From Elusimicrobiota bacterium (GTDB lineage Bacteria; Elusimicrobiota; Elusimicrobia; UBA1565; UBA9628), in NCBI GenBank assembly GCA_016212795.1, contig JACRDT010000015.1:132770-196769 (forward strand): a DNA stretch of 64,000 bases. The letters are read 5' to 3'. The position numbers were made by a program, and so were the translations under genes. Positions 42,530 through 61,899 of this stretch are shown one piece after another (the first letter of the stretch is position 1; every line of letters begins with the position of its first letter). The notes beneath the pieces were generated by a model. That model did not search any database. It was not told the origin of the DNA and was given only the letters and a program-made list of their open reading frames with translations.

Positions 42530-43695
42530 AGAGCTCCCCCGGGCGGAAGGCCCGGCTCAAGAAGCCGGCCGCCGTCATCCGGCGGGCGACCCCCGAGGAC
42601 GCCGACGAGCTGCGGCGCATGTACCACGACGTCTACGAGGGCAAATACACCCTCAGCATCATCTACGACGCCGACGAGACCGCCGACGCCCTCAAGAAGG
42701 ACGACGTCCATTGGTTCGTGGCCGAGGACGCCGGCCGGATCGTGAGCTCCGTCATCTTCTCCGTCGAACGGGACCTCAAGCTCGCCAAGGTCTTCGGGGC
42801 CGTGGTCCTTCCAGAGTACCGGGGCTCGGACCTGACCGAGCGCGCCATCGCCATGGGGCTCGCCTCGATCATCGACGAGGAAGGCCAGGCCCACAGCGCC
42901 TACGCCACCGCCCGCACGATCTCGCCCGCCCCCACGCGCCTCCTGCGCAACCTCGGGTTCGCGGACCTGGGGGTGCTGCCCAACGTCCGCAAGGTCCAGA
43001 ACTACGAGACCCACTGCATGTGCGCCTACTTCCGCAAGGGGGCGCTGGCCGACCGGGTGGTCCCGCCCAGGCTCCCGACCGCGCTCAAGCCCTTCTACTC
43101 CATCGTCCGGCGCGCCACGGGCATCGGGGACGCCGAGTGGCACGAGCTCCCCATCGAGCCCTCCTCCCCGTACGCCGGCAAGTGGATCGAGTTCGAGATC
43201 ATCGAGGCCCCGCACTACATCCTGGGGCGCTGGAAGGCGCTCAAGGCCGAGCACAAGCTCAAGATGCAGTTCTTCCCCTTCCACGAGCCCAACCTCCTGC
43301 TCGTGGCCAAGGACCGCCCCGCGGAGATCTACGTCTACTACTCCAAGTCCGACCACTACGCGGCCATCATCGGGGGCCACGAGCACGTCCCCGACCTGAC
43401 GCACCTGCTCAACTCGATCGTCATGGCCCTCGAGGAGCACGGGGCGCGCTACCTGGAGCTCCTGACCTCGGCCTACCACCCGGAGGTCGTCAAGAGGATC
43501 ATGGACGCGAGGTTCCTGCCGAGCGCCTACTACCCCGCCCTGCGGTGGAACCACGGGCAGGGCCACGACTACATCGTCTTCAGCAAGTCCTTCGTGCTGC
43601 TGGACTTCAGCAACATCGTGGCCGAGGGGCTCGTCAGCGACTACATGCGGGAGTACTTCAACCTCTGGCGGGCGCTGTACATCAGGGGCGTCTGA
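42526..43695 (+). CDS. double-domain GNAT-family protein, paralog 2
   Basis: ATGA overlap. IRRATPEDADELRRMY and VVLPEYRGSDLTERAIAMGL (R-x-x-G-x-x-type CoA motif). Confidence 0.6.
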   Translation: MKSSPGRKARLKKPAAVIRRATPEDADELRRMYHDVYEGKYTLSIIYDADETADALKKDDVHWFVAEDAGRIVSSVIFSVERDLKLAKVFGAVVLPEYRGSDLTERAIAMGLASIIDEEGQAHSAYATARTISPAPTRLLRNLGFADLGVLPNVRKVQNYETHCMCAYFRKGALADRVVPPRLPTALKPFYSIVRRATGIGDAEWHELPIEPSSPYAGKWIEFEIIEAPHYILGRWKALKAEHKLKMQFFPFHEPNLLLVAKDRPAEIYVYYSKSDHYAAIIGGHEHVPDLTHLLNSIVMALEEHGARYLELLTSAYHPEVVKRIMDARFLPSAYYPALRWNHGQGHDYIVFSKSFVLLDFSNIVAEGLVSDYMREYFNLWRALYIRGV

Positions 43696-43725
43696 CCCCA
43701 GGGCGGGCCGGGGCCGGCCCGGCGC

Positions 43726-45138
43726 TCAATGGGCCAACAGGCGCAGGCCGGCGGACAGCTGGTGCCTCAAGGCAGCCAGGGAACGCACCGAGGCCAGGCG
43801 CCGGAAGATGTAGCCTGGCCGCAGATAGAACCTCCGGTAGATGTCCTTGATCATCGCCGCGAGTTCTTCACGGGTGAAATGCTCGTTCCATACCTCGGGC
43901 GTGAAGCCGGGCGAGGGATCCTGCGCGTAGCGCCGCCAATAATCCCCGGGGAACAATCCCTTGGCGAGGCCGAGCCGGTACAGGTCGGTGCCCGGGAACG
44001 GCGTCGCCGCCCCCAGATGGATGTAGTCGGCGTCGAGGCCGAGGAGGTAGTCCACCGTCGCCGCGATGTGGCGGCGCTGCTCGCCCGGGCATCCGATCAT
44101 GAAATAGGCGAGGGTCTCGAACCCCAGCCTCTTCGCCGCCGAGAACGTCTCTTTCGCCTTCGCCAGGTCGATGTCCTTTCGGAGGGCCTTCAGGATGTCC
44201 GGATGGCCCGATTCGATGCCCAGATGGAGCCGGTAACAGCCGCTCTCCCGGAGCCGCTCGAGCATCTCCCGGTCGAGCGTGTCGACCCGCGCGCGGACGT
44301 CCCAGAGGACCTTCAGCCTCCTTCGCGCGATCAGGGAGCATATCTCCATCACCCGAGACCGGTCGATCGTGAAGGTGTCGTCGTAGAATTTGATCTCGCC
44401 GATCCCCCGCGACACGCAGTCCTCCATCTCCCGCACCACGGAGCCGGGCGAGCGGGCCCTGAATCTCTTGCCGAGGTGCGGCCGTTCGCAGAACAGGCAA
44501 GGGTAGGGGCAACCCCTGCTCGAGATCATCGTCGTGATGCGATCCGCCCTGCCCAGCAGCGAATGGTAGAGCCCGTTGTCGAGCAGGCCTCGGTCCGGCG
44601 ACGGGACGTCATCGAGGTCCGCGATCAGGCCTCTCTCGGCGGTGCGCACGACGGCGCCGTTCTCCCGCAGCACCAGGCCCGGGACAGCCTTGAGGTCGCC
44701 CTTGCCGGCGAGCGAACGCAGGAGGTCGACGACGGCGGATTCCCCTTCCCCCAGCACGAGCGAATCGACCGGGGGGAACCCGATCGACTCCTCGGGATAG
44801 ATGTTCACGTGCGGGCCGCCCAGGCAGACGTGCGCGCCGGGCCGGACCCTCTTCGCCGCCGCCGCGACGCGATACGCGTCGAGGAGCGAGAACGTCAGGA
44901 CCTGGATGCCGACGAAGTCGGGCCTGCGGCGCGCGATCTCGCGCTCGATGCCGGGTTCGTCGAGCCGTTCGGCGGCGCAGTCGAGGACTTCGACGTCCCA
45001 ATCGGTGCCGGCCCGGGCGGCAGAGGCCACATAGAGCAGACCCATCGGGGGGTAGCAGCCCGTGGAATCATCCACGAAGGCCGGGACATTCGAGCGGATC
45101 ATGTGCCGCGACGGCGGGTAGATGAACAGGGCCTTCAT
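43726..45138 (-). CDS. B12-binding-domain radical SAM enzyme (second copy, different subfamily by eye)
   Basis: MKALFIYPP...GLLYVASAA...SLVLGEGE. SSRGCPYPCLFC. Start at ATG 45138 inside ORF 43726..45720. Confidence 0.8.
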   Translation of the reverse strand: MKALFIYPPSRHMIRSNVPAFVDDSTGCYPPMGLLYVASAARAGTDWDVEVLDCAAERLDEPGIEREIARRRPDFVGIQVLTFSLLDAYRVAAAAKRVRPGAHVCLGGPHVNIYPEESIGFPPVDSLVLGEGESAVVDLLRSLAGKGDLKAVPGLVLRENGAVVRTAERGLIADLDDVPSPDRGLLDNGLYHSLLGRADRITTMISSRGCPYPCLFCERPHLGKRFRARSPGSVVREMEDCVSRGIGEIKFYDDTFTIDRSRVMEICSLIARRRLKVLWDVRARVDTLDREMLERLRESGCYRLHLGIESGHPDILKALRKDIDLAKAKETFSAAKRLGFETLAYFMIGCPGEQRRHIAATVDYLLGLDADYIHLGAATPFPGTDLYRLGLAKGLFPGDYWRRYAQDPSPGFTPEVWNEHFTREELAAMIKDIYRRFYLRPGYIFRRLASVRSLAALRHQLSAGLRLLAH

Positions 45139-45191
45139 GGTCTCAGGTCCGCGCGGAGCGGCCCCTTCGGCGCGAGGCCGGCGGGACCCCG

Positions 45192-46118
45192 CTATTTCCT
45201 CGCGCCGTGCTGGCGGCGCAACAGAGAGAATTGATCCGCCAGGATGCCGAACAGCAAAATCAAGAGAGCGCCCAGCGACATGACGACGCCCGTGTTGGGC
45301 ACCCTGCCATGCAGGCCGATGTTGAGGATCGTCATCCCGACCCCGATGACGCCGCAGACCACGGCGGCGGGGATGAAGACCCTCAGCGGGTTGAACAGCG
45401 AGATGGTCCTCATGATCATGATGACGGTGTTGATCCCGTCGCTGACGACATTCACGTTGCTTGCCCTGCCGGCGCGCTCGTACACCGTGACCGGGACGAA
45501 CGTCACGCTGTACCCGTCGCCCATGAAGGCGAGAGTGGTCGTCGTGGAGATGGAGAACCCGTTCGGATAGAGGGGAAGGAACTCGAGGAACACGCTCTTC
45601 TTGAACAGCCGCAGGCCGGAATTGACGTCGGGGATCGCCGTCCCGGCCAGGTAATTGGATACCAGCCGCATGATCATCTTCCCGGGGCGCCTGACCCAGG
45701 CGGGGTGCGCCCCATGGCACCGGTTCCCGATGATCAGATCATACCCTTCTTCCTGAGCCTTGAAGAACGACGGCAGGCTGTCCAGGCGATGCTGCCCGTC
45801 GCTGTCGAGAGTCAGGATCCATCCATGCCCCGCCGATCTCGTCCCCGCCTTGATGGCGGCCCCGTAGCCCATGTTGTACGGCAGCCTGATCACCTTGACC
45901 CCTTCCACCGACCCCGCGATGGCCGCTGTTCGATCGGTCGACCCGTCGTCGACCACGATGACCTCGCAGCCCCGATGGCAGGCCGCCCGCGAAAGGGCCT
46001 CCCGCACGTGCTCGAGGAGCGCGCCGATCTCCGACTCCTCGTTGTACGCGGGGATGACGACGCTGACGTCGTCGTCGCGCCTGCCGCCCCCTTGCGCTCG
46101 CGGTCCTGATCCGATCAT
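45192..46118 (-). CDS. GT2 glycosyltransferase, polyprenol-phosphate glycosyltransferase-like (DPM1/ArnC-type) with C-terminal TMs
   Basis: VSVVIPAYNEE, VVDDGSTDRT, LDSDGQH (DxD). C-terminal hydrophobic helices. Confidence 0.8.
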   Translation of the reverse strand: MIGSGPRAQGGGRRDDDVSVVIPAYNEESEIGALLEHVREALSRAACHRGCEVIVVDDGSTDRTAAIAGSVEGVKVIRLPYNMGYGAAIKAGTRSAGHGWILTLDSDGQHRLDSLPSFFKAQEEGYDLIIGNRCHGAHPAWVRRPGKMIMRLVSNYLAGTAIPDVNSGLRLFKKSVFLEFLPLYPNGFSISTTTTLAFMGDGYSVTFVPVTVYERAGRASNVNVVSDGINTVIMIMRTISLFNPLRVFIPAAVVCGVIGVGMTILNIGLHGRVPNTGVVMSLGALLILLFGILADQFSLLRRQHGARK

Positions 46119-46179: not shown

Positions 46180-46872
46180 TTATAGCTGATGTCCGGCCGG
46201 CGTCGGGCGGGCAGCCACGCAGCAGATATCGAACCCGATGCTCCTGAGCGGCGTCTTGCCGAGCATTCGTCCGATCGGTATCCACCAGCAGGGAGCCTTG
46301 TTGGGGACAAGCCATCCTTCCACGTGGACATGAACGGATAGGAGTCCCGTCTTCACGAACAGCCCACGCATGTAGCCGGGAGAGAAACGCCATGCCATGC
46401 GTTCTTCTCGCTCGAGCAGAGAGAACGCTAATACCAGAGGGTTCGTTCGGTTAGGCTCGAACGAGATGACGGCACGGCTGGCAACCCTCCTCATCTCCAT
46501 CAGGGTTCGGATCCGGGCGGGTTCTTCAAGATGATGGAGGAGGTGGGAAGCGACCGCAACGTCAAAACTCCCATCAGCGAACGGAAGCCCCTCGGAGGAA
46601 CCGAGGTACTTCTCCTTGCAGGGGTTGACCTCGAGCATCCGCGCAGAGCGGTCCACCCCGGCGACCCGCCCGAACCGCTTCTCCAGCGCCCATTGCAGAT
46701 ATCCATTCCCGCACCCGACGTCGAGCACGCTGGAAGCGCCCGCGCCGTCGACGGCTGACGCGACGATGGCCGCGAACGGGGCGAACGTCGCTTCTACGAC
46801 GGGGTGGTCCGGTGTCCGTCGGTCATGGTTGTCTCTAGACCAATGCTCATCCTGAATCTTCTGTTCGCCCAA
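46180..46872 (-). CDS. class I SAM-dependent methyltransferase
   Basis: VLDVGCGNGYL and FDVAVASHLLHHL. The region is visibly less GC-rich. Confidence 0.7.
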   Translation of the reverse strand: MGEQKIQDEHWSRDNHDRRTPDHPVVEATFAPFAAIVASAVDGAGASSVLDVGCGNGYLQWALEKRFGRVAGVDRSARMLEVNPCKEKYLGSSEGLPFADGSFDVAVASHLLHHLEEPARIRTLMEMRRVASRAVISFEPNRTNPLVLAFSLLEREERMAWRFSPGYMRGLFVKTGLLSVHVHVEGWLVPNKAPCWWIPIGRMLGKTPLRSIGFDICCVAARPTPAGHQL

Positions 46873-46989
46873 TCGCCCCTCTTCCTATGGCTGGTCGCGC
46901 AACGATCCGGGATCCCAGCCTGTCCCGGCACCATGAGTCTGACATTCCTCGCCAAGCGCTCGCAAGAGGACTTTGATATCATTCTCCCG

Positions 46990-48546
46990 ATGGCCCGCGA
47001 GCATCCTCCCAGAACCGGCGGGTCCTCGCCCGCCGGCCCCCGTCCGGCCTCCTGGGCCGTCCCGCTCGGCATCGCCCTGGGCGTGTTCCTCTTCAACATC
47101 AGCTTCGCCGCCTTCGGCTTCATGTCGCCGGACGCGTCCCTCTATCTCGACATCGGCAGGAACATCCTCTCCGGGAAGGGCGCGGTGACCTCGTCCAACT
47201 TCTATCATTTCTGGCTCGCCAAGCACCACCCCGCCCTTCCCTACGTCCCTCCGCTCTACCCCGTCTTCGCCGGGGTCGTCTGGAAGCTCGCGGGGCTCAA
47301 AGGGGCCATCGGCGCCAACATCCTCCTCCTGGGGGCCAACTGCGGCCTCCTCTACGCCATCCTCTCCAGGACCAGCGGCCGCCTGGCCGCCGCCCTCGCG
47401 GCGCTCCTTGTCGGGGTCACCTTCCCCGTCGTCAAAACCTCGATCTACCCCTGGACCGAGCAGCTCCACCTGCTCTTCCTGCTCTCGGCCTTCCACCTGC
47501 ACCTGGCCGGAAGGCGCAAGGACGTCCTGGTCGGCGTGATCCTCGGGGCGAGCTGCCTCGTCCGGGTCGCCTCCCTCCACAACATCGCGGCCTTCGCTCT
47601 TTCGAGAGTCGTCCTGGAAGGCCTTTCAAGGGAGGCCCTCCTGCGCCAAGCCAAGACGGCCCTCGGCGTCCTGGCGGTCCTGCTCCCCTACGAGGCCTTC
47701 TGCTGGCTGGCCTACGGCATCGTCTTCCCCGAGTATCCAGCGGCCTCGAAGACGTTCACCCTGGCGGGCTACCACCCCGGAGCTTACTACGCCCTGGCCA
47801 TGCCGGTCCTTAGGGCCCCGCCAATACCCCTGGAGACCGGCACCATCGCCATGAGGTTCCTCGCCCACCTCGGCTCCTTCATCACGGCCTTCGACACAGC
47901 GGTCTTCGCGCTCGTCCTGGCCCCACTCCTGCTGATCTTGAACCGGGAGCGGCGCCGAGACCCCGTCCTCGTCACCCTCCTGGCCCAAGGGTTCGTGCCG
48001 ATCCTCCTCTTCAGCATCAGTTTCACCTGGAGACCCGACGTCGATGGGCCTCGCTACCTCCTCATCCCGCTCGTCGCGATCATGAGCTCGACCCTCGTCC
48101 TGACCAGGGACCTGGCCGCCGGATTCCTCGAGGGCCTCGAGAAGCGCTGGCGGCTTGCGACCGCCCTGTCCGCCGTCCCGTTCTTCGCCCTCGCCCTGCC
48201 CGAGACCTGGGAGTCCCGCCGCAATCCACTGCTCCTAAGGCCGGACCTGACCGCCGACCACGTCAGGGACAGGGACGTCGTGTACCGCTGGATCAGGGAG
48301 AACACGCCCGAGGACAGCCTGGTCGTCTCCGACCAGATCATGGACTCGTTCCTTTTCGATCGACCCTTCGTCTGCTTCCCGTTCGGAGCCGCGTACACCC
48401 CGACGAACGTCGAGGGCTTCCTATCGGTCTACAAGCCCGATTACGCCCTGACGAACAACCCCCAGCTCTACCCCTTCCTGCTCAAGCGCGGCTACGCGTC
48501 GGTCATGGAGACCCGATCGCTTGCCGTCTTGCGGAGGAAACCGTGA
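46990..48546 (+). CDS. polytopic membrane protein, GT-C (ArnT/PMT)-like glycosyltransferase candidate, tandem paralog 1
   Basis: Multiple TMs. SPDASLYLDIGRNI first-loop acidic motif. Start chosen by alignment with paralog 2 (alternatives 46933, 46804). Confidence 0.55.
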   Translation: MAREHPPRTGGSSPAGPRPASWAVPLGIALGVFLFNISFAAFGFMSPDASLYLDIGRNILSGKGAVTSSNFYHFWLAKHHPALPYVPPLYPVFAGVVWKLAGLKGAIGANILLLGANCGLLYAILSRTSGRLAAALAALLVGVTFPVVKTSIYPWTEQLHLLFLLSAFHLHLAGRRKDVLVGVILGASCLVRVASLHNIAAFALSRVVLEGLSREALLRQAKTALGVLAVLLPYEAFCWLAYGIVFPEYPAASKTFTLAGYHPGAYYALAMPVLRAPPIPLETGTIAMRFLAHLGSFITAFDTAVFALVLAPLLLILNRERRRDPVLVTLLAQGFVPILLFSISFTWRPDVDGPRYLLIPLVAIMSSTLVLTRDLAAGFLEGLEKRWRLATALSAVPFFALALPETWESRRNPLLLRPDLTADHVRDRDVVYRWIRENTPEDSLVVSDQIMDSFLFDRPFVCFPFGAAYTPTNVEGFLSVYKPDYALTNNPQLYPFLLKRGYASVMETRSLAVLRRKP

Positions 48547-50081
48547 CGCCGGACTCGACCCGCCCTCCCCTCGGGGAAAGGCTGGTCCCGCTCATCCCGT
48601 GGGGCATCGCGCTGACCGTCTTCCTCGTCAACCTTCCGTTCGCTTCCCTTGGCCTCCTGTCGCCGGACGCCTGCCTCTACCTGGACATCGGCAGGAACAT
48701 CTTCTCCGGCAACGGCGCGGTCACCTCGTTCAACTTCTATCAGTTCTGGCCCGGGAAGTATTACCCCGCCCTTCCCTATGTCCCTCCCATCTACCCCGTC
48801 TTCGCCGGCCTCGTCTGGAAGCTCGCCGGGCTCAAGGGCGCCATCGGCGCCAACATCCTCATCCTGGGGGCCAACTGCGCGCTTCTTTACGCCATCCTCT
48901 CCCGGACGAGCGGCCGCCTGGCCGCCGCCCTCGTGGCCATCTACGTCGGGACCCGTTGGCACGTCGTCCTCACCGCCCTCCTTCCATGGACGGAACAGCT
49001 CCACCTGCTCTTCATCCTCGCGGCGATCTTCCTGCATCTGCGGGAGACGCGGCGGGAATTCCTGGTCGGCGTGATCCTCGGGGCGAGCTGCCTCGTCCGG
49101 ATCGCCTCTCTCTACAACATCGCGGCCTTCGCCATCTCCACGGCCCTGCTCGAAGGCCTCTCTTGGGACGCCCTCAAGCGCCAGGCCAAGACGGCCCTCG
49201 GGGTCCTGGCCGTGCTGGTTCCCTACCAGGCCTTCTGCTGGCTGGTCTACGGCCGTGTCTTCCCCCAGTATACCGCGGCCGCGACGTCCTCCATCCTGGC
49301 GGAATCCTACCCCGGCGCGTCCTACGCCCTGGCCATGCCGGTCCTCAAGGCCCCCCCCATGCCCTTGGCCACCGGGAACATCGTCCTATGGGCCATCTCC
49401 CACCTAGGCTCCTTCAAGAAGGCCTTCGGCAGGGAATACCTCCTTCTCGCGCTCGCCCCCCTCGCGCTCTACCTGAGCCGGGAACGGCGCCGGAACCCCG
49501 TCTTCGTCACTCTCCTGGTCCAGGGATTCGCCCCGATCGCACTCTTCAGCATCAGCTTGTCCTGGAAGCCGATCGTCGACGCGTACCGATACAACCTCAT
49601 CCCCTTCATCATGATCGCGAGTTCGGCGCTCGTCCTGACCAGGGAGCTGGCCGCCGGTTATCTCAAGGGCTTGGAACAGCGCTTCAGGCTCGCGACGATC
49701 CTCGTCTTCGCCCCCTTCTTCGCCCTCTCCCTGACCGAGGCCGGGAAGTACCATCGGAACCATGCGCTGATCCGGCCGCATGGGACCGCCGCCTTGAAGA
49801 AAGACAAGGCCGTCGTGTACCGCTGGATCAGGGAAAACACGCCGGGGGACGCTCTGGTCGCCTCCGACCAGCTCTCGGACCCGTTCCTCTTCGAGCGGCC
49901 CTTCGTCCGTTTCCCGCCGGGCGCCGCGTTCACCCCGAAGACCGTCGAGGAGTTCATGGGGGTCTTCAAGCCAGAATACGTCCTGACGGAGAACCCCGCG
50001 CTCTTCGCCTTCCTGCTGGAGCGCGGCTATGAACGCTCCATGGAGACGCGCCTCCTGGCCGTCCTGCGAAGGAGAAAATGA
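48543..50081 (+). CDS. GT-C-like membrane protein, tandem paralog 2
   Basis: GTGA overlap. Collinear with paralog 1 over the full length (e.g. PALPYVPPIYPVFAGLVWKLAGLKGAIGANILILGANCALLYAILSRTSGRLAAAL). Confidence 0.6.
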   Translation: MTPDSTRPPLGERLVPLIPWGIALTVFLVNLPFASLGLLSPDACLYLDIGRNIFSGNGAVTSFNFYQFWPGKYYPALPYVPPIYPVFAGLVWKLAGLKGAIGANILILGANCALLYAILSRTSGRLAAALVAIYVGTRWHVVLTALLPWTEQLHLLFILAAIFLHLRETRREFLVGVILGASCLVRIASLYNIAAFAISTALLEGLSWDALKRQAKTALGVLAVLVPYQAFCWLVYGRVFPQYTAAATSSILAESYPGASYALAMPVLKAPPMPLATGNIVLWAISHLGSFKKAFGREYLLLALAPLALYLSRERRRNPVFVTLLVQGFAPIALFSISLSWKPIVDAYRYNLIPFIMIASSALVLTRELAAGYLKGLEQRFRLATILVFAPFFALSLTEAGKYHRNHALIRPHGTAALKKDKAVVYRWIRENTPGDALVASDQLSDPFLFERPFVRFPPGAAFTPKTVEEFMGVFKPEYVLTENPALFAFLLERGYERSMETRLLAVLRRRK

Positions 50082-50123: not shown

Positions 50124-51458
50124 CTACTCCCCCAGGGCTCCGAACGCATGGGGCCCCCCGGTCCTCTCGCCGGCAAGGGGGTTGTCCGCGCCCAGGACAC
50201 GCTTGCTCGTGAAGGTCGTCGCGCCGCCGGGCGGCAGGTCGACGTCCCAGGTCTCCCCGCTCTTGCTCGCGAGGCGCGCCTTGAGGGGCTTGTCCGCGGC
50301 GTTGAGGAACCTGTAGTGGTACTGCGACCCGCACCGCCCGAGCAGCCAGGCCTTCCCGTTCAACTCGAGGGCCGTCACCTGGATGAACCGGTCGGGCGTC
50401 ACCTCCAGCTTGCGCAGGCAGGGCGCGACGACCGCGCCGTCCAAGGCGCAGGCCAGCTCGCCGCAAGCCGCGGGTGCCCGGGGCGAAGGCCCGGGGGCTG
50501 AAAGCATGGGGGCCTCGCGGACAGGAAGCAAGGGCCGAGAGAATTCCTGCGGCGCGAGGCCTTCCGCTTCGGCCGCCGGCGCCGGCGCCTCCTTGTAGAA
50601 GATCCCGTCGGTGGAGTTCGCCCTCATGGGCGCGGGCTGGACCCGAACGCCCTGGATGAAGGCCGGGATATCCTCGCCGCGGGGGCCGGTGCCGTCCACC
50701 GATTTCTTGTTGTCCTCGGCGCAGTCCGCCGCCCCCCAGGCCTTGCAGTCGCGGCGGGTCCCCTGGGTCGTCACGACCCCGCGCTCGTCGATGCAGTAGG
50801 CCCCCGGCCGCATGACGTTCCAGGAGCACGGAGGCACGATCTTGTACCAGTCCCGATCCGAGGCCGCCTTGGCCCTCTCGGCGGTCCTCTGGGCGGCGGC
50901 CGCGGCCTCTTCCTGGGTGGCGGGCCGGCCCGCGATGAAGCTCTTGTTCTCGACCTGCGAGGTGCTCAGGCCACCATCGGAGGACCCGGACGGCTTCGCG
51001 ATGGCCGCGAGGTACCGGACCGGCTTGAGGCGCGGGGCCGAGGCCGGCGGCCGGCCGGCGAGCCGGCCCGGCTCCTCGGCGGGAACGGGGCCCCGCTGAG
51101 CCTGGCGCTCGGGATACGGCACGAGCCCGTCGGCGGGCTGAAGCGCCGAAGGCTCGGCCGCCGGCCTGGCCGCACCCCCCCCGAACGGCGCGTCATCCAT
51201 CCTGGCCTGCGCCGCGGGCCTGGCCGGGACGTCCCGCGGCGACGACGCGGGGCGCGTCGCGGCCGGCCCTCCCCTCCCGACGTCCTTGAAGATCAGGGCC
51301 GACGCCAGCCCGGCCGCGAGGACCGCCACCGCGGCGAACTTGGCGCGCTCCGCGCCGGCCGGGGCCTTCGGGCGGGCGCGCGACGGGATGACGACGGGAG
51401 GGCTCGCCGGGACGGGACCGGGCTCCGGGTCCGGCCGGGGCGAGGGGTCGATGGCCAC
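50124..51458 (-). CDS. hypothetical membrane-anchored, Pro/Ala-rich and Cys-containing exported protein
   Basis: GTG start. TM FAAVAVLAAGLASALIF. No family recognised. Confidence 0.45.
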   Translation of the reverse strand: MAIDPSPRPDPEPGPVPASPPVVIPSRARPKAPAGAERAKFAAVAVLAAGLASALIFKDVGRGGPAATRPASSPRDVPARPAAQARMDDAPFGGGAARPAAEPSALQPADGLVPYPERQAQRGPVPAEEPGRLAGRPPASAPRLKPVRYLAAIAKPSGSSDGGLSTSQVENKSFIAGRPATQEEAAAAAQRTAERAKAASDRDWYKIVPPCSWNVMRPGAYCIDERGVVTTQGTRRDCKAWGAADCAEDNKKSVDGTGPRGEDIPAFIQGVRVQPAPMRANSTDGIFYKEAPAPAAEAEGLAPQEFSRPLLPVREAPMLSAPGPSPRAPAACGELACALDGAVVAPCLRKLEVTPDRFIQVTALELNGKAWLLGRCGSQYHYRFLNAADKPLKARLASKSGETWDVDLPPGGATTFTSKRVLGADNPLAGERTGGPHAFGALGE

Positions 51459-51536: not shown

Positions 51537-52010
51537 ATGAAGCTCTACCTGCTCCGGCACGGCCATGCGTTGTCGGCCACCGAGGCCAAGGTCGCCAGCG
51601 ACGCCGACCGGCCTCTCTCCGACCAGGGGCTCGCCGACGTCAGCCGGATGGCGCTCTACCTCTCCAGCCGGGGCGTCGTGCCGAACCTCATCCTCCACAG
51701 CCCGCTCAAGCGGGCCAGGCAGACGGCCGCTCACGCCCGCTCCGCCTGGCCCAGCCATCCGGCCATCGAGGTCTTCGACCCGCTTGCCAACATCCTCGGC
51801 CCCGAGGAGCTCCTGGACCGCCTCCTGGAGCGCTCGGCGGGCGTGCCCGAACTCCTGGCGGTCGGGCACCAGCCCCAGCTCGGGGAGCTCGCCCGGCACC
51901 TCAGCGACGCGCAGTTCGCCCTGAGGCCGGCCGGCGTCATCGCCCTGGAGACCACGGACAAGAAAGCCCGCACCCTCTGGGCCTTCAACCCCGAAGACCT
52001 CATGCTGTGA
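51537..52010 (+). CDS. sixA: SixA-type phosphohistidine phosphatase (histidine phosphatase superfamily)
   Basis: MKLYLLRHGHA (RHG motif), SPLKRARQTA, AVGHQPQL. Confidence 0.75.
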   Translation: MKLYLLRHGHALSATEAKVASDADRPLSDQGLADVSRMALYLSSRGVVPNLILHSPLKRARQTAAHARSAWPSHPAIEVFDPLANILGPEELLDRLLERSAGVPELLAVGHQPQLGELARHLSDAQFALRPAGVIALETTDKKARTLWAFNPEDLML

Positions 52011-53242
52011 ACCGTCCAAACGCCCGCCGGCGCGCCGGCCTCCTCGCGGCGATGGCGGCGCTGGGGCTCCTCCTGCCGGCCCCCGCGTCGGCCTTGTTCA
52101 GCGCCAAGGAGCTGGAGCGGGTGGACACCGAGCCTTTCCTGGACTACGAGTACTTCTCGGACCTCCAGGCCTTCTCCTACCCGATGGAATGGGACCTCGC
52201 GTGGCGCGCCTCCACCATGTCCTACCGGGCCAGCGGGGCGAGCCTCGACTGTTGCGACCTCCTTTGGTCCCAGGAGCTCCTGACCAGGTTCCAGCTGGCG
52301 GACACGCTGGCCTTCTCCGTGCGCCTCGCCCAGCAGGAAGACAAGGAGCGCCGCGACCTCCACTACCTGCTCGAGTTCGAGAAGAAGCTCCCCTGGGGGC
52401 TGACGGCCTGGGTCTTCGGCGAGCCCACGTACGACAAGAAGGACGCGGACGCCGGGCTGGGCCTGGGTTGCGCGCTCTCCAAGGGCCTCCAGCTCTCCTA
52501 CAGGCGCACGGCCGCGGACTTCCCCTTCAACCGCAAGGCCGGCGACCCCCAGCGCTACAGCCGCCAGCCCTTCACGGACGAGTTCCGCGTCGACGCGGAC
52601 TTCGCGCGAGGCCGGCTCTCGCTCCAGGTCGAGCTGGACCAGCCCCTGCGGCGCGAGTTCTGGAACGAGAGCCGCAGCTACTCCTACCGCAGGACCACGG
52701 GCAGGGCCAGTTACCAGGGGCCCGTCCTGGGCGTGACGGGCAGGCTGGGCTACACCTACGAGTACCAGCACGAAGGCGACTATCTCTCCCCCGACCCGGG
52801 CACGCGCTCGGTCGACTACCGGCGGCGGACCCACACCCTGCTGGCCGCCGTCCTCGCCGACCTGGGGGCCCGCGACTCCCTGGAGGCGGGCCACAACCTC
52901 ATCCTGCGCGACGCGCGCAACGACAACCCCCACGACCCGGACGCCGGCATCATGTACCGCCGGTGGGAGGCCGAACCCTACGCCCGCTGGCGCCACCGCG
53001 CCAGCGACCTCGTCACGACGGAGCTCGCCGCCTTCCTCTCCCTCGGCGAGTACCGCAAGCGCTACCCCGCGCACCTCATCCCGTCCGTCTTCGACCCCAT
53101 CATCCAAGCCAAGCTCGGGACGGGCCTGGACTTCACCTTCGGCCCTAGAGGCCGGGTCGGGCTCTACGGGGCCTTCGACCTCGACGGCGCGGCCACCCAC
53201 CCCTGGGACGGCGGCAGCATCCGGGCCATGTTTGTCTTCTAA
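52007..53242 (+). CDS. putative outer-membrane beta-barrel protein
   Basis: GTGA overlap. Signal peptide LLAAMAALGLLLPAPASA. Alternating amphipathic strands. C-terminal IRAMFVF (terminal Phe). Confidence 0.45.
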   Translation: MNRPNARRRAGLLAAMAALGLLLPAPASALFSAKELERVDTEPFLDYEYFSDLQAFSYPMEWDLAWRASTMSYRASGASLDCCDLLWSQELLTRFQLADTLAFSVRLAQQEDKERRDLHYLLEFEKKLPWGLTAWVFGEPTYDKKDADAGLGLGCALSKGLQLSYRRTAADFPFNRKAGDPQRYSRQPFTDEFRVDADFARGRLSLQVELDQPLRREFWNESRSYSYRRTTGRASYQGPVLGVTGRLGYTYEYQHEGDYLSPDPGTRSVDYRRRTHTLLAAVLADLGARDSLEAGHNLILRDARNDNPHDPDAGIMYRRWEAEPYARWRHRASDLVTTELAAFLSLGEYRKRYPAHLIPSVFDPIIQAKLGTGLDFTFGPRGRVGLYGAFDLDGAATHPWDGGSIRAMFVF

Positions 53243-57051: not shown

Positions 57052-60000
57052 TCAGCTGATCCTGGCCCCCTTCGCGATCTTCTTCTTGAGGATGTTGCGC
57101 AGGCTCTTGGCGAACTCGGCGGCGTCCTTGAGCCACCAGCCCTGACCCGCCGGGAAGAGGTCCAGCACGAGCTGGGCGCCGGGCCCCAGGCCGATGCCGT
57201 GGATCTCGACGTCCCTGGCGCCCTTGATGAGCTCGCGGTACTGGTCCCGGTCGAAGTTGTAGTCCGGGTCCCCGTCGTTGACCATGATGACGAGCTTGTC
57301 GCCCCGGCCCAGGCGGATGCGCTCGATGGCCTCCTTGAGCGCCACGTGGGCCTCGGTCGAGCCCGAGCCCGACATGATCATGGAGACGATCTTGCTCTTG
57401 AGCTCGGGGGAGAGCTTCGTCCCGTAGGGCTTGATGACCTTGGGGTCGGAGTCGTACTTCACGATCTCGAAGACCACGCCCGGGACCTTCTCCAGGGCCT
57501 CCATCATCATGACCGCGCCCTCGACGGCGCGCTCCTTCTTCTCCCGGTCCATGCTGCCGCTGGTGTCGATGAGCAGGGAGACCCGGTAGAGGACCTTGTT
57601 GGGCGACATCTCCTCTTTGAAGACGTCCCGCTCGCCCCGGGGGATGGACGGGAGGGCGTCCTCGTCGAGGTCGCCGGTGTCCCGGTTGTGGATGGTGCGC
57701 TGCCTGAGCTTCTGCTTGAGGGCGTGCATCAGCTCCCGGCGCATGGTCGGGACGAGGCCCCGCACCCGGGAGAGGAACTCCTGGTACTGGCGCCGGTCCT
57801 CGAGGGAAAGGTCCTCCTTCTCCTGGTCGGCCTTGTTGAGCCGGGACTTCTGCTTGGCGGCCTGCTCGGGGGTCTGGGGCTTGTCCGCGGAGCTCTTCTT
57901 GGAGGCCTGGCCCGACCCACCCTGCCCTTGCTTGCCGTCCTGGGGCTCGCCGGATTCCTGCTGGCCCTCCTTGCCCTCCTGCCCTTTCTGGCGGGCCTGC
58001 TCCATCTTCTTGCGCAACTCCTCCATCTCGCGCTTGGCCTTTTCGCGGGCGTCCTTCGACATCTTCTCGGGGTCGTCGACGACCTTGCTGGCGTGCTTGT
58101 CCCGGTACTCCTTGGAGGCTTTCTCGAGCTTCTCCTTGGCCTGCCGCTCGAGCTCCTTGCGCTCGGAGTCGCTCAAGTTGTCGTCGGAAGACCGACCCTG
58201 GCCCTGGCCTTGGCCCTGCTGCCGCTTCTGTTGCTGCTTGGCCCTCTGCTCCATCTCAGACTTGGTCGCCTCGTCGAGGAGCTCCTGGTAGATGGGCCAG
58301 ATCTCATAGAGCACGATATCGAAGGCGCGCCGCGCGTCGGCCGCCTTGAAAGCGCGCTGGAGGGCGCCGTCCGCCCGCCGCAGGGCGTCCCGGACGCGCT
58401 CGTCGACCACGCGGGGATCGGGCTTCCCGGTCCACCACTCGTAGATGAGCGCGTAGTTGAACTGCAGGTGCAGGGGAATGGACTGCCACTGGTTGCGCTC
58501 CAAGCCCAGGTCCCTGATCTCGTAGTCCTTGGCGTAGGCGGCGTCCACCCATGGCTGGGCCCCGGGGTGGGCGCCCAAGCCCAGGTTGTTCACCCTGGGA
58601 TCCTCCACGGCCCACCAGAGCGCCTGGAAGGACATGTTGTCCGCCAGGTCGGGATGGTCGAAGATCAGCTCTGGTCGGCTGTGGAGAAGGTGCCAGGACT
58701 CGTGCGCGGTCCGGCCGAGGGAGACGTTGCGGTCCGGATCCGCGAGGTCCTCGGGGAGGTAGTGGATCTCCGACAAGCCCGAGACCACGCGCCAGGTGCG
58801 CGGCGTCTCGTCGGAGCGCTCGCCGTGCTTCTCGAGGTAGTAGAAGGGGACGAGCCTGATCGGGGGATATTGGGCCAAGAGCCTCGCCACGTTCTCGAGG
58901 ACCTTGGCCCAGGCTTCCTGCCCCTGGTCGGCCGCTCCCCCGGCGGGCTGGCCCTTGGGCGACGTGAAGGGCATCGGCGGGAGGTGCCTTCCGAACCTGT
59001 TCCACCGCCCATGGACCCCCAGGAACTCGCCGTCCCAGTCGTGGTCGTGGACCCGGGACTTCCAATGCTCGCCCGGCGGACTGGGCGGCGGGTCGGCCGG
59101 CTTGGGGTCCTGCGTCCCTGCGTCGGCGGCCTTGGGCCTGGGCGCCGGCTTCTCGAGGGCCTCCTCTACGGCAGGTTCAAGGGACTTTTTTTTTACATCC
59201 TCGCCCTCGGCCGCCGCCTGCCGCGCAGCGGCAGGTGCCTTGCCCAGGCCGTTGGCCGTGAGCACCTTCGAGATGGCCTCGCCGATGGCCGGGTCCTCCA
59301 CGATGGAGGAGGGGTTGTAGGTCTTGGTGAAGATGTCCGCCACGCTGTCCTGCGGGAACTGCTGGACGTGCTGCACGATGTGCATGAGCGTTCGGGGCGC
59401 GATCGGCAGCGGCAGGATCTCGGGGTACATCCTGCGCAGGTCGTTGGCGATGGAGACCAGGCGGTGGATGATGTCCCTGGACACCTTGCCGAAGAAGATC
59501 GCGAGCAACGCCTCCTCCTCCTCCGGCGGCAGGTACTTGACGTCCAGGGTCATGCCGAAGCGGCTGGAGAGCTCGCCCGAGGGGGGCTCGCCCTTGTAGG
59601 GGGGCTTCACCGGGTTCATCGTGCCGATGACCCAGGACTTGGTCCGGTCGTACTTGATGACCCGGCCGTCCGCCAGCCGGTACTCGCCGTTCTGAAGGAT
59701 GTTGTTGAGGACCGCGATGCCCTCGAGCGGCTTGTGCATCTCGTCGAGCACCAGGATGCCGCCTTCCTGCATCCAGCGCAGGACCGTCGAAGGCGTCAGG
59801 CCCGTCTTGTTCTTGCCTTCCTCGCCGAAGGTCTCCCGGGCGATGAGGTCCTTGTTCCGGGTGTACTCGTTCATCGAGACCATCCAGAGCTCGTTGCCCG
59901 TGAGCTGGGCCAGCATCGAGGCGATCCAGGTCTTGCCGCCCCCGGTCTCGCCGATGTAGAGCACGTGCTGCTGGAGCGAGAAGCCCTTCAAGGTGTCGTA

Positions 60001-61866
60001 GATGAGCCGCTTGTTCGACGGCAGGTTGAGCGCCTGCCAATCCCGCTCGCTGATGCCCATGTCAAGCGCCGCCGCAGGCGGCGCTTCTCTTCCCAGGAGC
60101 CTCCTGACGGCGGCCCATGCGCGCTCGGTCCAGGGCCTTGGCTTGGCCTGTTTCCTCGCGACGGGAAAGGCGAAATCCCCGATGTGCAGGAAGCCGCCCT
60201 GCACGAACATCGGGTTGGCCTGGGACCACAGCCTGACCTCGGCGGCCCGGGAGCCCAGGAATTCCCTGGCCTCGCCGAGTTGCAGCTGGAAGACCTTGCG
60301 CCCCGCGGCGACGGCGACCGTCTGGTCGCCGGCCGACATCATGAGGCTGACCGCCCCGCCCTGGGCCGCGGCCTCGGCGAGGCCCGGCACCTTGAACGTG
60401 CGATAGCGCCCGCCGGCCGCGTCGAGCTCGACGACGCCCTCGGGGGCGACGGCGAAGAACGTCCCGCGCACGGCGCCGCGCACCACCGACTTGACGTCCA
60501 GAGGCAACGCCGCCACCTCTTCGAAGACCGGGTCGTCGGAGGCGTACGACCGGGCGTAGATCCTCGTGCCGTCGGCCGTCTTCTGAAGGTAGAGCCCTTC
60601 CGAGACCCGCTCCACGCCGGCGATCAGGTTGCCGTGCAGGTCGACGATGTCCTCCTTCTGCGTCAGCCGGATCAGGCGGTCGTTGATCCAGTAGAGCCTG
60701 GAGCCGGCCGTCTGGACGGCCACCCCTTTCTCGGACTTGTACTCGACGGCGGCCAGGGACCGGGCGGCCTCGAGGCCCAACGAGGGGCCTTCGACCTGGA
60801 GCGTCTCGGCGGCGGGCTTGAAGGAGAACAAGTCCCACTTCTGCAGCTTCCCGCCGGCCAGCACGTAGAGCTTCCCGCCGTCGGAGTCCGCGGCCATCAG
60901 GGACACCGGGCCGGGCGTCTCGACCTTGAAGGTCCGGCCCTTGGCGATGTCGTGGTAGCGGACCGTCCCCTGTTCGTCGAGCCACACGACGGCCTCGTTG
61001 TCGTTGCGCTTGAGCGACACGGCGCTCTTGATGCCGGCGGGCACGGTCCATGACCGGCCCGTGAGCCTGGCCTGCAGGTCGGCGGAAAGCCGCGCCTCGA
61101 TGAACGCCGCATCCGCCGCCACCACGGTCAGGTCCGAGCTCTGCTTGGAGATCGGGGCATCCTCGCCGAGCTCCTTGACCTCCGTTTCCAAGGCGCGCAC
61201 CCTGAGCTTCCTGCCCTGCGAAGCGCCGGCGGACCTCCACTGCGGATCGACCTCCGGCAAGGCCGCCTCGGCGGGCTTGCCTAGGTAGGACTCCTTCGGG
61301 GTCAGGTCGTACTCGCCGGCGACCTCGGATTGGCCGCCGACAGCCGGGAGCTTGGCTCCGTCGAAGACCTGGCCCAGCACCTGCGGCGCGAGCCGCACGT
61401 CGGCGCCTTCCCCTTGGGGCAGACCCTGAGCGGCTTCCTTAATATCAGTGAACGCCGCGCCGGGGGACCCCAGACGACCTTCGGGCGCCACCCCCGGCAC
61501 GGCCGGGAGCTGCATCACGGAATCCCCGCCCGCGAAGCTCGCCCGCAGTACGGCCGGCTGGCCCGGGGCCGCCGGCGCGAGCGCCAGGGGCGGGGCAACG
61601 ACGCCGCCCACCGGGGCGCCTTGGAACGCTGGCGCCTGAAAGCCGGGCAGCGAGGGCGCCGCCAGGACGCCGGCCGACAGGCCGGGCACCGCGGCGCCGA
61701 TGCCGGGGTTGGTCAAGCTGTTGAGTCCGGCGGCGACCGGCTGGGTCACGGGGGTCGCGTTGACGACCCTCGTGGCCGTGAGGTTCGCGGCCGGGGCGAC
61801 GGCAGGGACAATCAGGAAGGCGATCGCCAGGGGAATGGCGATCCGCCAGTGGGATTGGGGATCCAT
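57052..61866 (-). CDS. giant multidomain protein: signal peptide/TM, ~600-aa beta-rich region, MoxR/AAA_5-like ATPase, HExxH region, Lys/Glu/Gln-rich coiled coil, C-terminal VWA (MIDAS)
   Basis: Walker A GETGGGKT (~59929..59952). Walker B ILVLDEMH (~59736..59762). AHESWHLLH (~58681..58707). MIDAS LLIDTSGSMD (~57551..57580). First ATG is 61866; the ORF-track start 61899 is a TTG. Confidence 0.8.
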   Translation of the reverse strand: MDPQSHWRIAIPLAIAFLIVPAVAPAANLTATRVVNATPVTQPVAAGLNSLTNPGIGAAVPGLSAGVLAAPSLPGFQAPAFQGAPVGGVVAPPLALAPAAPGQPAVLRASFAGGDSVMQLPAVPGVAPEGRLGSPGAAFTDIKEAAQGLPQGEGADVRLAPQVLGQVFDGAKLPAVGGQSEVAGEYDLTPKESYLGKPAEAALPEVDPQWRSAGASQGRKLRVRALETEVKELGEDAPISKQSSDLTVVAADAAFIEARLSADLQARLTGRSWTVPAGIKSAVSLKRNDNEAVVWLDEQGTVRYHDIAKGRTFKVETPGPVSLMAADSDGGKLYVLAGGKLQKWDLFSFKPAAETLQVEGPSLGLEAARSLAAVEYKSEKGVAVQTAGSRLYWINDRLIRLTQKEDIVDLHGNLIAGVERVSEGLYLQKTADGTRIYARSYASDDPVFEEVAALPLDVKSVVRGAVRGTFFAVAPEGVVELDAAGGRYRTFKVPGLAEAAAQGGAVSLMMSAGDQTVAVAAGRKVFQLQLGEAREFLGSRAAEVRLWSQANPMFVQGGFLHIGDFAFPVARKQAKPRPWTERAWAAVRRLLGREAPPAAALDMGISERDWQALNLPSNKRLIYDTLKGFSLQQHVLYIGETGGGKTWIASMLAQLTGNELWMVSMNEYTRNKDLIARETFGEEGKNKTGLTPSTVLRWMQEGGILVLDEMHKPLEGIAVLNNILQNGEYRLADGRVIKYDRTKSWVIGTMNPVKPPYKGEPPSGELSSRFGMTLDVKYLPPEEEEALLAIFFGKVSRDIIHRLVSIANDLRRMYPEILPLPIAPRTLMHIVQHVQQFPQDSVADIFTKTYNPSSIVEDPAIGEAISKVLTANGLGKAPAAARQAAAEGEDVKKKSLEPAVEEALEKPAPRPKAADAGTQDPKPADPPPSPPGEHWKSRVHDHDWDGEFLGVHGRWNRFGRHLPPMPFTSPKGQPAGGAADQGQEAWAKVLENVARLLAQYPPIRLVPFYYLEKHGERSDETPRTWRVVSGLSEIHYLPEDLADPDRNVSLGRTAHESWHLLHSRPELIFDHPDLADNMSFQALWWAVEDPRVNNLGLGAHPGAQPWVDAAYAKDYEIRDLGLERNQWQSIPLHLQFNYALIYEWWTGKPDPRVVDERVRDALRRADGALQRAFKAADARRAFDIVLYEIWPIYQELLDEATKSEMEQRAKQQQKRQQGQGQGQGRSSDDNLSDSERKELERQAKEKLEKASKEYRDKHASKVVDDPEKMSKDAREKAKREMEELRKKMEQARQKGQEGKEGQQESGEPQDGKQGQGGSGQASKKSSADKPQTPEQAAKQKSRLNKADQEKEDLSLEDRRQYQEFLSRVRGLVPTMRRELMHALKQKLRQRTIHNRDTGDLDEDALPSIPRGERDVFKEEMSPNKVLYRVSLLIDTSGSMDREKKERAVEGAVMMMEALEKVPGVVFEIVKYDSDPKVIKPYGTKLSPELKSKIVSMIMSGSGSTEAHVALKEAIERIRLGRGDKLVIMVNDGDPDYNFDRDQYRELIKGARDVEIHGIGLGPGAQLVLDLFPAGQGWWLKDAAEFAKSLRNILKKKIAKGARIS
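61456..61533 (+). repeat. GC-rich hairpin element copy D (core 61456..61505), antisense to the giant gene
   Basis: CGCGCCGGGGGACCCCAGACGACCTTCGGGCGCCACCCCCGGCACGGCCG. The host reads it as LPAVPGVAPEGRLGSPGAAF. Confidence 0.85.
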
Positions 61867-61872
61867 GCCGAC

Positions 61873-61899
61873 ATCATACGAACATCCGGCGTCTTCCAA
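61873..61899 (-). promoter_or_regulatory. TTGGAA-N15-TATGAT promoter-like motif, -10 box 6 nt from ATG 61866
   Basis: Minus strand reads TTGGAAgacgccggatgttcgTATGATgtcggcATG. Confidence 0.4.

Follow-up and report, generated by a model that had tools for sequence, protein, structure and literature searches.

The window analyzed here, 64,000 nucleotides (nt) of contig JACRDT010000015.1 from a metagenome-assembled genome (MAG) of an Elusimicrobiota bacterium, carries a gene for a protein of 1,604 amino acids (aa) in which a MoxR-class AAA+ motor and a von Willebrand factor A (VWA) adaptor follow a signal-peptide-like N-terminus and a beta-propeller. This protein probably represents a self-contained MoxR-VWA remodeling machine of the CobS/CobT (NorQ/NorD) type, of which shorter isoforms would arise by slippage, and which would be exported through the Sec pathway. 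Across the family to which it belongs, motor and adaptor share one polypeptide, either via in-frame fusion or via a -1 shift. A slippery joint like those of chlD and dnaX, an unusual front made of signal peptide, tether, and propeller, and a near-total exclusion of cysteine characterize this MoxR-VWA family. A preliminary description of the window had read the domains largely correctly and had overlooked the poly-A joint, though its clause on a possibly frameshifted assembly touches on the same spot.

A Single, Continuous Gene

The frame in question is open on the minus strand over 57052-61899, starting with a TTG at 61899, and its GC content at third codon positions (GC3) is 0.83-1.0 in this single frame from the first to the last codon; there is therefore no internal frameshift. 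The long antisense open reading frame (ORF) listed in Table 1 is an artifact, because the codon-position GC pattern favors the minus-strand frame. An identical protein, encoded on a 228-kb contig, has been deposited as MBI5209859.1 (“MAG: AAA family ATPase [Elusimicrobia bacterium]”). The single chain of about 1,600 residues that the preliminary description had proposed is thus borne out by a continuous, coding-like ORF, and the motifs it had quoted are found at residues 639 (GETGGGKT), 704 (ILVLDEMH), 1055 (HESWH), and 1434 (DTSGS). It had also considered that the gene might be a fusion artifact of a frameshifted assembly. The fusion recurs in relatives, for example in a 1,578-aa orthologue at locus L001, and it is therefore not an assembly chimera.

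As a homologue search with the whole protein returned the query alone, low-complexity words of the K/E/Q-rich linker having probably swamped the candidates, queries with sub-regions were used instead. These produced 57 relatives, and a genome scan produced 29 loci, every named one from Elusimicrobia. A metagenome scan with the adaptor profile gave four loci only, mostly cut at contig ends.

Motor and Adaptor on One Chain

The assignment of a MoxR-type AAA module is confirmed both by domain scan and by fold. Pfam AAA_5 is recognized at aa 634-770 (E 5e-18, 65.9 bits versus a curated cut-off of 22), and the AlphaFold model of the module matches NorQ (9qh8) and CbbQ (6l1q) in Foldseek, with E of ~1e-13 and template-modeling (TM) scores of 0.81-0.84 over ~255 residues. 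The best profile match is PHROG 249, phage CobS-like (1e-19), and the top sequence matches in the PDB are the AAA domains of midasin. As judged by the modeled fold, the nearest relatives of the module are NorQ and CbbQ, and as judged by profile, phage CobS. The lid of the CbbQ/NorQ type (CbbQ_C, PF08406) is matched weakly in the window protein (E 0.12, 13 bits versus a cut-off of 20.6), a precomputed match being available for relative P0030, and no match to Mg_chelatase (PF01078, ChlI/BchI type) is found in the window protein at E up to 1. The ATPase motifs are invariant across 20-43 homologues. In 20 homologues, N751, R769, and R825 show no or almost no variation; by their positions and by likeness to CobS, these may serve as sensor 1, arginine finger, and sensor 2, respectively. 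A prophage origin was considered and rejected, the PHROG matches being only to the generic CobS-like ATPase.

The C-terminal VWA domain, with its metal ion-dependent adhesion site (MIDAS), had likewise been recognized from the sequence, and it stands: Pfam VWA is found at aa 1431-1561 (E 7.5e-9, 36.5 bits versus a cut-off of 23.8), and the MIDAS residues (D475, S477, and S479, T545, and D572-D574 in alignment numbering) are invariant. The top fold matches of this domain in Foldseek are the MIDAS domains of MDN1/Rea1, and integrin I domains and the VWA domain of NorD are also matched. The helices and the loop that precede it hold further invariant residues (R429, R431, R436, G439, D442, P450, and G452 in alignment numbering), and the R-rich loop (aa ~1395-1425) is a candidate for a “shaft” or “finger” entering the pore of the AAA ring, after the models of the CobT shaft and the NorD finger. 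The K/E/Q-rich segment upstream had been described as a charged coiled coil. In the model, it consists of helices with a predicted local distance difference test (pLDDT) of ~55-90 between stretches below 50, and it is better described as a mostly low-confidence, length-variable linker.

Between the joint and this linker lies a CobT_N-like, zincin-like domain, here called Mid. The preliminary description had likened its HExxH segment to the metallopeptidase-like domain of some VWA partners, and this proposal gains support from CobT-like relatives and from an invariant HExxH...E pattern. Positions H96, E97, W99, H100, E129, and D130 of the alignment are invariant in 13-14 homologues, and these include H1055, E1056, H1059, and E1088 of the window protein; distant relatives carry HE[VI][WF]H at the same motif. 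The HExxH...E pattern is that of a zincin metallopeptidase, its motif falls in helices of the model, and it is predicted to form a gluzincin-like metal site. The cut-off for Pfam CobT (PF06213, 26.1 bits) is exceeded by two relatives, P0048 with 27.1 bits and P0060 with 32.3 bits, and P0048 also matches CobT of NCBIfam (TIGR01651; 4.7e-8), with 32 bits versus an equivalog cut-off of 759. The Mid segment of the window protein has no match to TIGR01651, to PF06213, or to a peptidase family of Pfam. In the adaptor model, of mean pLDDT 69, the VWA domain is well predicted and Mid exceeds 70 from about aa 1055, with aa 973-1054 below 60. A fold search with this model was dominated by VWA matches, with no independent match for the Mid fold, and a profile search of PDB sequences with the adaptor alignment also produced VWA domains only, without a solved relative of Mid by sequence. 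That the chain might be a genuine aerobic cobaltochelatase CobS-CobT is extremely improbable, even though its best profile matches are CobS-like (PHROG 249) and CobT: the 32 bits fall far below the equivalog cut-off, a signal peptide and a propeller are foreign to CobS, and no CobN-sized gene is present in the window or in related loci, no other ORF above 1,003 aa being found in bases 1-40000 of the window.

The Poly-A Joint Between Motor and Adaptor

Directly past the AAA module, the gene runs through nine consecutive A residues (A9), the sole A/T run of at least 7 in the 64-kb, 70% GC window; the number of runs of at least 9 expected from composition is 0.004. In the zero frame, the joint (context GAT GTA AAA AAA AAG TCC CTT GAA) contains the heptamers A_AAA_AAA and A_AAA_AAG, encoded with codons that are rare in this gene: AAA is used 7 times versus 94 for AAG, GTA represents 3 of the 111 valine codons, and all other KK and KKK stretches use AAG. 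A -1 shift, or one extra A, would yield the AAA-only form, and a slip in either direction ends within 2-6 codons. Stops this near in both other frames are found at 0.25% of gene positions. In the -1 frame of the gene, only 6 of 1,605 codons are stops, and the median distance to the next one is 161 codons. No significant hairpin is present downstream of the run (z -0.6), and Rfam identifies no known frameshift element around the joint. Upstream GAGG motifs of the window, considered as a stimulator resembling a Shine-Dalgarno (SD) sequence, were dropped, being unconserved in other loci.

Relatives of the window protein carry such runs at the same joint. Most of the matches are “AAA family ATPases” of 800-915 aa, with signal peptide, tether, propeller, and AAA module, and the others are “VWA proteins” of 600-715 aa starting with ...MPF(T/N)(S/T)P. 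Nine split loci (L002 = L018, L023, L038, L016, L035, L037, L017, L006, and L036) possess a run of A7-A10 at the homologous joint; the AAA ORF ends at or just past the run, and the adaptor ORF is in the -1 frame in nine of nine, open into or through the run. L039, in which bases around the joint are masked, was left out. Across the 433 kb of sequence from relatives, the A/T runs of at least 9 are all, nine of nine, at this joint. The stretch from the run to the annotated adaptor start has, in the split loci, a coding-like GC3 (0.74-0.93) and conserved peptide motifs (FDFD; RAxxLAAxEAAAxG..LLxPMxFxTP). In L016, L035, and L017 it contains no possible start codon, the start called in L017 truncating a conserved domain, and an SD-like motif is present at none of eight called adaptor starts versus four of seven AAA gene starts. 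Because of the coding-like GC3, the conserved motifs, and the missing starts and SD motifs, these sequences indicate that the stretch is translated in the split loci. Strong hairpins are found downstream of the run in L002, L016, L036, and L037 (z -3.3 to -3.9, with a 7-nt spacer in L036), and none in L017.

Other members of the family are fused in frame (L010, L013, L021, L024, L025, L027, L030, L031, L033, and L034), and many of these loci, without a run, possess a tandem AAA-only paralogue along with the fusion (L001, L010, L003+L024, L011+L025, L012+L021, L015+L013, L005/L020+L031, and L022/28/29+L030). In L001, for example, an 862-aa AAA-only gene is followed, after 18 nt, by the orthologue of the window protein, with a signal peptide of its own. 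Wherever such a tandem paralogue exists, the run is absent. On the simplest interpretation, the family requires chains of both kinds, AAA-only and AAA-adaptor, and makes them either with a pair of genes or, by slippage, with a single one. The preliminary description had considered a fusion of AAA and VWA unusual; ChlD/BchD and other AAA_5-VWA fusions exist, and in this family fusion is the rule. In the literature that could be searched, recoding is not described for this family of Elusimicrobia.

Tandem arrays of two or three paralogues with signal peptide, propeller, and AAA module are seen in L001 (4949-12291), L003, L011 (8491-14334), and L012 (8310-13532), and many MAG contigs of the relatives break inside the AAA repeat. 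The AAA-only paralogues P0004, P0006, P0007, and P0054 end in a conserved [V/F/I]-P-F (alignment columns 1090-1104), and the -1 product of the window gene would end in ...KKKVP.

According to one alternative reading of the run in the window, the gene is a plain fusion, only the 1,604-aa protein is made, and A9 is a functionless relic of a frameshifting ancestor. This is possible, though not likely. The join in the zero frame and the lack of a significant stimulatory hairpin past the run agree with it, as do the close relatives L013, L024, L027, and L030, fused in frame without a run, and L007+L027, with no AAA-only paralogue in the 8 kb upstream. Against it, the run has been preserved, three rare codons included, although the genome is 70% GC, and both other frames stop soon after it; nor is an AAA-only paralogue found within the 64-kb window, whereas in NorQD and CobST the motor subunits are in excess. 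According to another alternative, which we find rather unlikely, the homopolymer was miscounted, or is heterogeneous in the population, the true or dominant state being A10 in an ordinary split locus and the long ORF being a consensus artifact or one phase of a phase-variable tract. With A10 instead of A9, ...VKKKVP-TGA would close the zero frame and the adaptor would fall in the -1 frame, so that one added A reproduces the canonical layout of the nine split loci; the -1 TGA also resembles the ancestral AAA-only stop, and no other in-frame locus has a run. On the other hand, the nine split loci, independently assembled with A7, A9, or A10, share the -1 relation, so the tract calls seem reliable; the deposited ORF is continuous, with coding-like GC3 on both sides; and the fused protein would still arise by slippage. 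The A9 count may reflect a true mutation, one of several states of a variable tract, or an error of the consensus; both isoforms are accessible in each of these cases.

Table 1. Features of the gene and its protein, in window coordinates.
Feature	Residues	Window position	Strand	Basis or remark
Whole gene		57052..61866	minus	1,604 codons plus stop; stop at 57052-57054; first ATG 61866
Sec-type signal-peptide-like N-terminus (MDPQSHWR / IAIPLAIAFLIVPAV / APA-AN)	1-27	61786..61866	minus	only hydrophobic segment; pattern in homologues
P/A/G/V-rich low-complexity tether	28-215	61222..61785	minus	composition; gappy alignment columns 30-290
All-beta N-domain, WD40-like beta-propeller	~216-530	60277..61221	minus	AlphaFold model; Foldseek
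Conserved connector, helix plus small beta unit between propeller and AAA	531-575	60142..60276	minus	model; invariant columns
MoxR-class AAA+, large and small (lid) subdomains	576-890	59197..60141	minus	Pfam, Foldseek, PHROG
Walker A GETGGGKT	639-646	59929..59952	minus	invariant in 20/20 aligned homologues
Walker B ILVLDEMH	704-711	59734..59757	minus	D708, E709 invariant
Slippery joint GTA AAA AAA AAG	V891-K894	59185..59196	minus	A9 run at 59186-59194
-1-frame TGA, two codons past the run		59177..59179	minus	AAA-only product of ~896 aa ending ...GEDVKKKVP
+1-frame TAG, a few codons past the run		59166..59168	minus	loss of one A also gives an AAA-only product
Predicted junction peptides: window in frame ...EGEDVKKKSLEPAVEEALEK versus short form, C-terminal ...DVKKKVP; L002 crossing in the -1 frame ...PGPKKKVTDAPEAPK				
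Inter-module linker, ending in conserved LPPMPFTSP (adaptor start in relatives)	895-972	58951..59184	minus	split-locus equivalent open in -1 frame only
CobT_N-like, zincin-like Mid domain	973-1215	58222..58950	minus	CobT matches of relatives; model
HESWH motif	1055-1059	58690..58704	minus	HExxH, invariant in homologues
E1088-D1089, putative third metal ligand E	1088-1089	58600-58605	minus	invariant; with HESWH, a gluzincin-like HExxH...E site
K/E/Q/G-rich low-complexity linker	1216-1345	57832..58221	minus	composition; many indels
Pre-VWA helices and R-rich flexible loop	1346-1425	57592..57831	minus	conserved; helices, then low-pLDDT loop
VWA with complete MIDAS	1426-1604	57055..57591	minus	Pfam; Foldseek; invariant residues
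DTSGS MIDAS	1434-1438	57553-57567	minus	invariant
Antisense ORF	1,284 aa	57199-61053	plus	high-GC artifact

The N-Terminal Half and the Question of Export

The N-terminus had been described as an apparent Sec signal peptide with no further transmembrane segment, and both statements agree with the family data. The sole hydrophobic stretch of the protein is at aa ~8-30, a scan of the whole chain detecting no second transmembrane segment. A signal-peptide pattern, scored heuristically as a net positive n-region, an uncharged hydrophobic h-region of ~11-25 residues often broken by P or G, and a small-x-small site, is present in 34 of 37 full-length homologues despite little sequence identity; in the window protein itself, the same scan assigns a net charge of 0 to the n-region and a predicted cleavage site, APA-AN. 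The conserved pattern in such divergent homologues means that the segment is not a start-codon artifact, and it argues against a true start downstream of the hydrophobic segment, a possibility that the preliminary description had raised. A lipoprotein was rejected, as no lipobox is seen by eye in the N-termini of the homologues, and, also by eye, no Tat motif is seen in these except one RRRKR case.

The “~600 aa of beta-rich sequence” that was said to follow is real as to its beta part; however, ~190 aa of it are P/A/G-rich low complexity, in a tether whose length and sequence differ among homologues, followed by a propeller of ~315 aa and a connector. The AlphaFold model of aa 188-892, built with 43 homologues, is confident (pLDDT 85, predicted TM score 0.83), and it shows a propeller with about 30 strands packed on the AAA+ module. 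The N-domain matches RACK1, Tup1, and prokaryotic WD40 proteins in Foldseek (TM scores 0.42-0.48), it has no Pfam match, and a sequence search with it gave just two matches; propeller identity among homologues is only 28-49%. The connector carries the motif VRLWSxxNPMxxxGGxLHIGDFxFP, with R545, W547, P552, M553, L560, I562, G563, and F567 invariant. Because the confident model packs them together, propeller and AAA module are expected in the same compartment.

An ATPase behind an export signal presents a contradiction, already noted in the preliminary description, and this contradiction is real and conserved across the family. Export is plausible, because the signal peptide is conserved and the family is nearly free of cysteine: 13 residues in 45,493 (0.03%) in the family and 0 in 1,604 in the window protein, with 1.1% in 11 neighboring genes. 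That the adaptor is always the continuation of a signal-bearing chain fits, at the level of sequence, what Sec export of each subunit would require. A tentative possibility is a competent AAA+ motor with a VWA adaptor, exported by Sec and working outside the cytoplasm, be it in the periplasm, at the cell surface, or within another cell, in which every subunit receives its signal peptide from one start and poly-A slippage sets the motor:adaptor ratio. Of much the same doubtful standing is a cytoplasmic, membrane-tethered machine, whose N-terminal segment would be uncleaved or not a translocation signal, and whose P/A-rich tether would leave it normal access to ATP. The ATPase motifs are under strong purifying selection, demanding ATP, no second transmembrane segment is present, and the characterized MoxR-VWA pairs are all cytoplasmic; ZipA and other cytoplasmic proteins also carry a long P-rich tether behind an N-terminal anchor. 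A cytoplasmic location agrees less well with the positive n-region in 34 of 37 homologues, the short h-region of about 11-20 residues, the P/G break, and the small-x-small site, which together form the pattern of a cleaved N-in signal, with the ~40-fold depletion of cysteine in the family, or with an adaptor that never has its own start, as fits a need for a signal peptide on every chain.

The Mid domain is also found in signal-peptide-bearing AAA_5+WD40 proteins, in giant proteins of 3-6 kaa (thousand aa), and in a signal-less fusion, P0066, and there may be a wider class of exported AAA_5 proteins. Proteins with Mid include P0071, P0075, P0117, P0139, P0142, P0083, and P0086, the giants being of 3,000-6,400 aa with signal-peptide-like N-termini; those that were scanned, P0071 and P0075, contain AAA_5 modules. 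Among the signal-peptide-bearing relatives of ~1,800 aa, P0083 contains AAA_5 together with a propeller of the WD40 type; another, P0086 (MBF0253098.1), comes from Omnitrophota. If the exported machine is real, the window protein would belong to a broader class, so far undescribed, along with the signal-peptide-bearing AAA_5/WD40/zincin/VWA proteins of Omnitrophota and the giant proteins of other bacteria. Either AAA+ work happens outside the bacterial cytoplasm, or sequence-based rules of export fail for a whole family.

Proposed Mechanism

The reading that we favor, a MoxR-VWA remodeling machine encoded by one gene, can be expressed as a sequence of steps. The poly-A tract would be a programmed slippage site, acting through ribosomal -1 frameshifting or slippage in transcription, and would determine in what proportion AAA-only and AAA-adaptor chains are made; in the window, standard decoding would produce the long form and a slip either way the short form. 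By analogy with the structures of NorQD and CobST, six AAA modules would form a ring, the zincin-like domain would dock on the AAA lid, the VWA-adjacent loop would enter the ring pore, and ATP hydrolysis would pull or twist the linker, remodeling, or loading with metal, a client to which the MIDAS face and the propeller hold on. The whole assembly may be exported by Sec, with the adaptor receiving its signal peptide as a continuation of the AAA chain.

The variable propeller suggests a role in recognition of a client or a ligand, because between tandem paralogues of one locus the propeller varies (38-41% identical) while the AAA module is conserved (87-97%). The same contrast would be expected of a system of threat sensing or conflict, in which the variable propeller senses a foreign ligand and MoxR-VWA acts as a thresholding switch. 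This alternative, compatible with the machine proposed here, is conceivable but on the unlikely side. Surface propeller sensors of the Esr type, with Sec signals, act with MoxR and vWA, and propeller-containing MoxR-vWA systems have been described (PMC7159879). At the same time, PADLOC has no match, no effector, kinase, FHA, VMAP, or third component is found nearby, and the described propellers are fused to vWA or carried on a separate surface protein, not on MoxR. Anti-phage defense as such was rejected for the lack of a PADLOC match.

Several observations weigh against the machine as formulated. The link to CobT comes from relatives and from a model with a mean confidence of only 69, the Mid segment of the window protein being without a Pfam match. 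No target, CobN-like partner, or operon context is found for the gene, and a CobN/ChlH-type gene is absent in six annotated related loci. The window is the only locus that combines a tract with an in-frame fusion, and it lacks a significant hairpin, so that slippage is a conjecture for this organism, whose A9 may also reflect a miscount in the consensus. The hairpins of the split loci do not represent one conserved fold, as consensus folding downstream of the run (L002, L023, and L038) produced no convincing shared structure or covariation. As to export, the call of the signal peptide follows a heuristic pattern, and cysteine depletion is weakened as proof, because relatives without a signal peptide are also cysteine-poor, if more weakly (0.35%). 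To our knowledge, no extracytoplasmic source of ATP is known, though every ATPase motif is invariant.

Genomic Context

The gene stands alone in the window. Upstream, on the same strand, is a gene for a weakly ferritin-like protein of 136 aa, with a divergent HD-domain gene beyond; a pfkB kinase gene converges on the 3' end, followed by REC-MBL, RsmD-like, GGDEF, and SixA-like genes. Elsewhere in the window, two adjacent paralogous genes for polytopic membrane proteins (46804-48546 and 48543-50081, plus strand) overlap by 4 nt and share the motif LYLDIGRNI.SG.GAVTS.NFY..., and the ORFs at 40849-45720, as translated, look like radical SAM genes on both strands, their N-terminal domains resembling B12-binding ones, with an acetyltransferase-like gene between. 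A P/A-rich protein of 444 aa with 8 cysteines (50124-51458, minus strand) and a 411-aa protein with a signal-peptide-like start, MNRPNARRRAGLLAAMAALGLLLPAPASA (52007-53242, plus strand), have no Pfam match.

Around the split loci L002, L036, L037, and L038, an ORF of ~50 aa and a gene for a MerR-family regulator are located downstream in four of four. A pseudouridine synthase gene is upstream in L002, L036, and L038, and a Memo-family gene in L037. The window has no shared synteny with these.

Comparison with Known Systems

Few AAA+ machines are as poorly understood as the MoxR-VWA pairs, and the propeller is a candidate recognition module for MoxR, whose targets are usually unknown. A close parallel in domain plan is CobS-CobT. 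In the cobaltochelatase CobSTN, CobT consists of an M48C zincin-like N-domain positioned on the CobS lid, a disordered linker of ~90 residues, and a C-domain, whose shaft enters the pore of the CobS6 ring and whose VWA MIDAS faces CobN (bioRxiv 10.64898/2026.07.21.739949). The C-terminal half of the window protein has the same plan of zincin-like domain, linker, and shaft with VWA, and its AAA_5 motor has a putative CbbQ-type lid. The homology is distant, the CobT equivalog cut-off being far missed; the window protein has motor and adaptor on one chain, with signal peptide, tether, and propeller before the motor, and its HExxH...E is intact and invariant.

Another parallel is presented by NorQ-NorD and CbbQ-CbbO. 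In NorQD, a finger of the VWA domain is in the ring pore, and the linker is pulled by ATP hydrolysis (PMC13036017). This type provides the best structural match of the AAA module (TM score 0.82), and the VWA domain of NorD is among the matches of the window VWA. However, these are cytoplasmic systems with a separate gene for each partner and with known targets (NOR and Rubisco), and they possess no zincin-like domain, propeller, or recoding.

The preliminary description had compared the order of AAA, charged linker, and MIDAS to midasin/Rea1 “in miniature.” The order of AAA_5, charged linker, and MIDAS holds, and midasin is the top fold match for VWA; nevertheless, with one AAA module and not six, this is an analogy only. 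Midasin has six AAA modules and a D/E-rich region, while the window protein has one Walker A, a K/E/Q-rich linker, and no tail or linker domains, and the VWA E-values are comparable to those for integrin I domains. The MoxR-vWA propeller conflict systems and Esr also bring together MoxR, vWA, and a variable WD40-type propeller, the propeller protein of Esr carrying a Sec signal. Subsystem 4 of the conflict systems (Kaur et al., 2020) joins the propeller to vWA and includes a third variable component, whereas in the window the propeller is N-terminal to MoxR, without a transmembrane segment and without a third conserved gene.

As to the proposed recoding, the closest precedent is chlD, in which a -1 frameshift on poly-A reaches 10-63% in reporters, rising with run length (PMC3711429), so that one gene produces the small and medium chelatase subunits, with in-frame fused versions in other species (PMC3711429; PMC9227772). 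The likeness, at the level of sequence, is the arrangement for a -1 shift on poly-A between the AAA and VWA parts, shared by nine related loci; the window gene also has the run, with the two parts joined in frame. The difference is that chlD belongs to the Mg_chelatase AAA clade and to other phyla, is cytoplasmic, and works with ChlH/CobN. The other precedent is dnaX of E. coli, with its tau and gamma products, where A_AAA_AAG, a zero-frame long form, and a -1 shift to a near-immediate stop resulting in a short form are all as in the window, in an unrelated protein; the window is without a significant upstream SD sequence or downstream hairpin. One practical consequence is that annotation pipelines split or fuse these genes depending on a single A. 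The family would be a second, independent case of the chlD/dnaX strategy, with a motor and a motor-adaptor fusion made from one gene, and its genomes with duplicated motors and no slippery tract present a natural experiment on how subunit stoichiometry is encoded.

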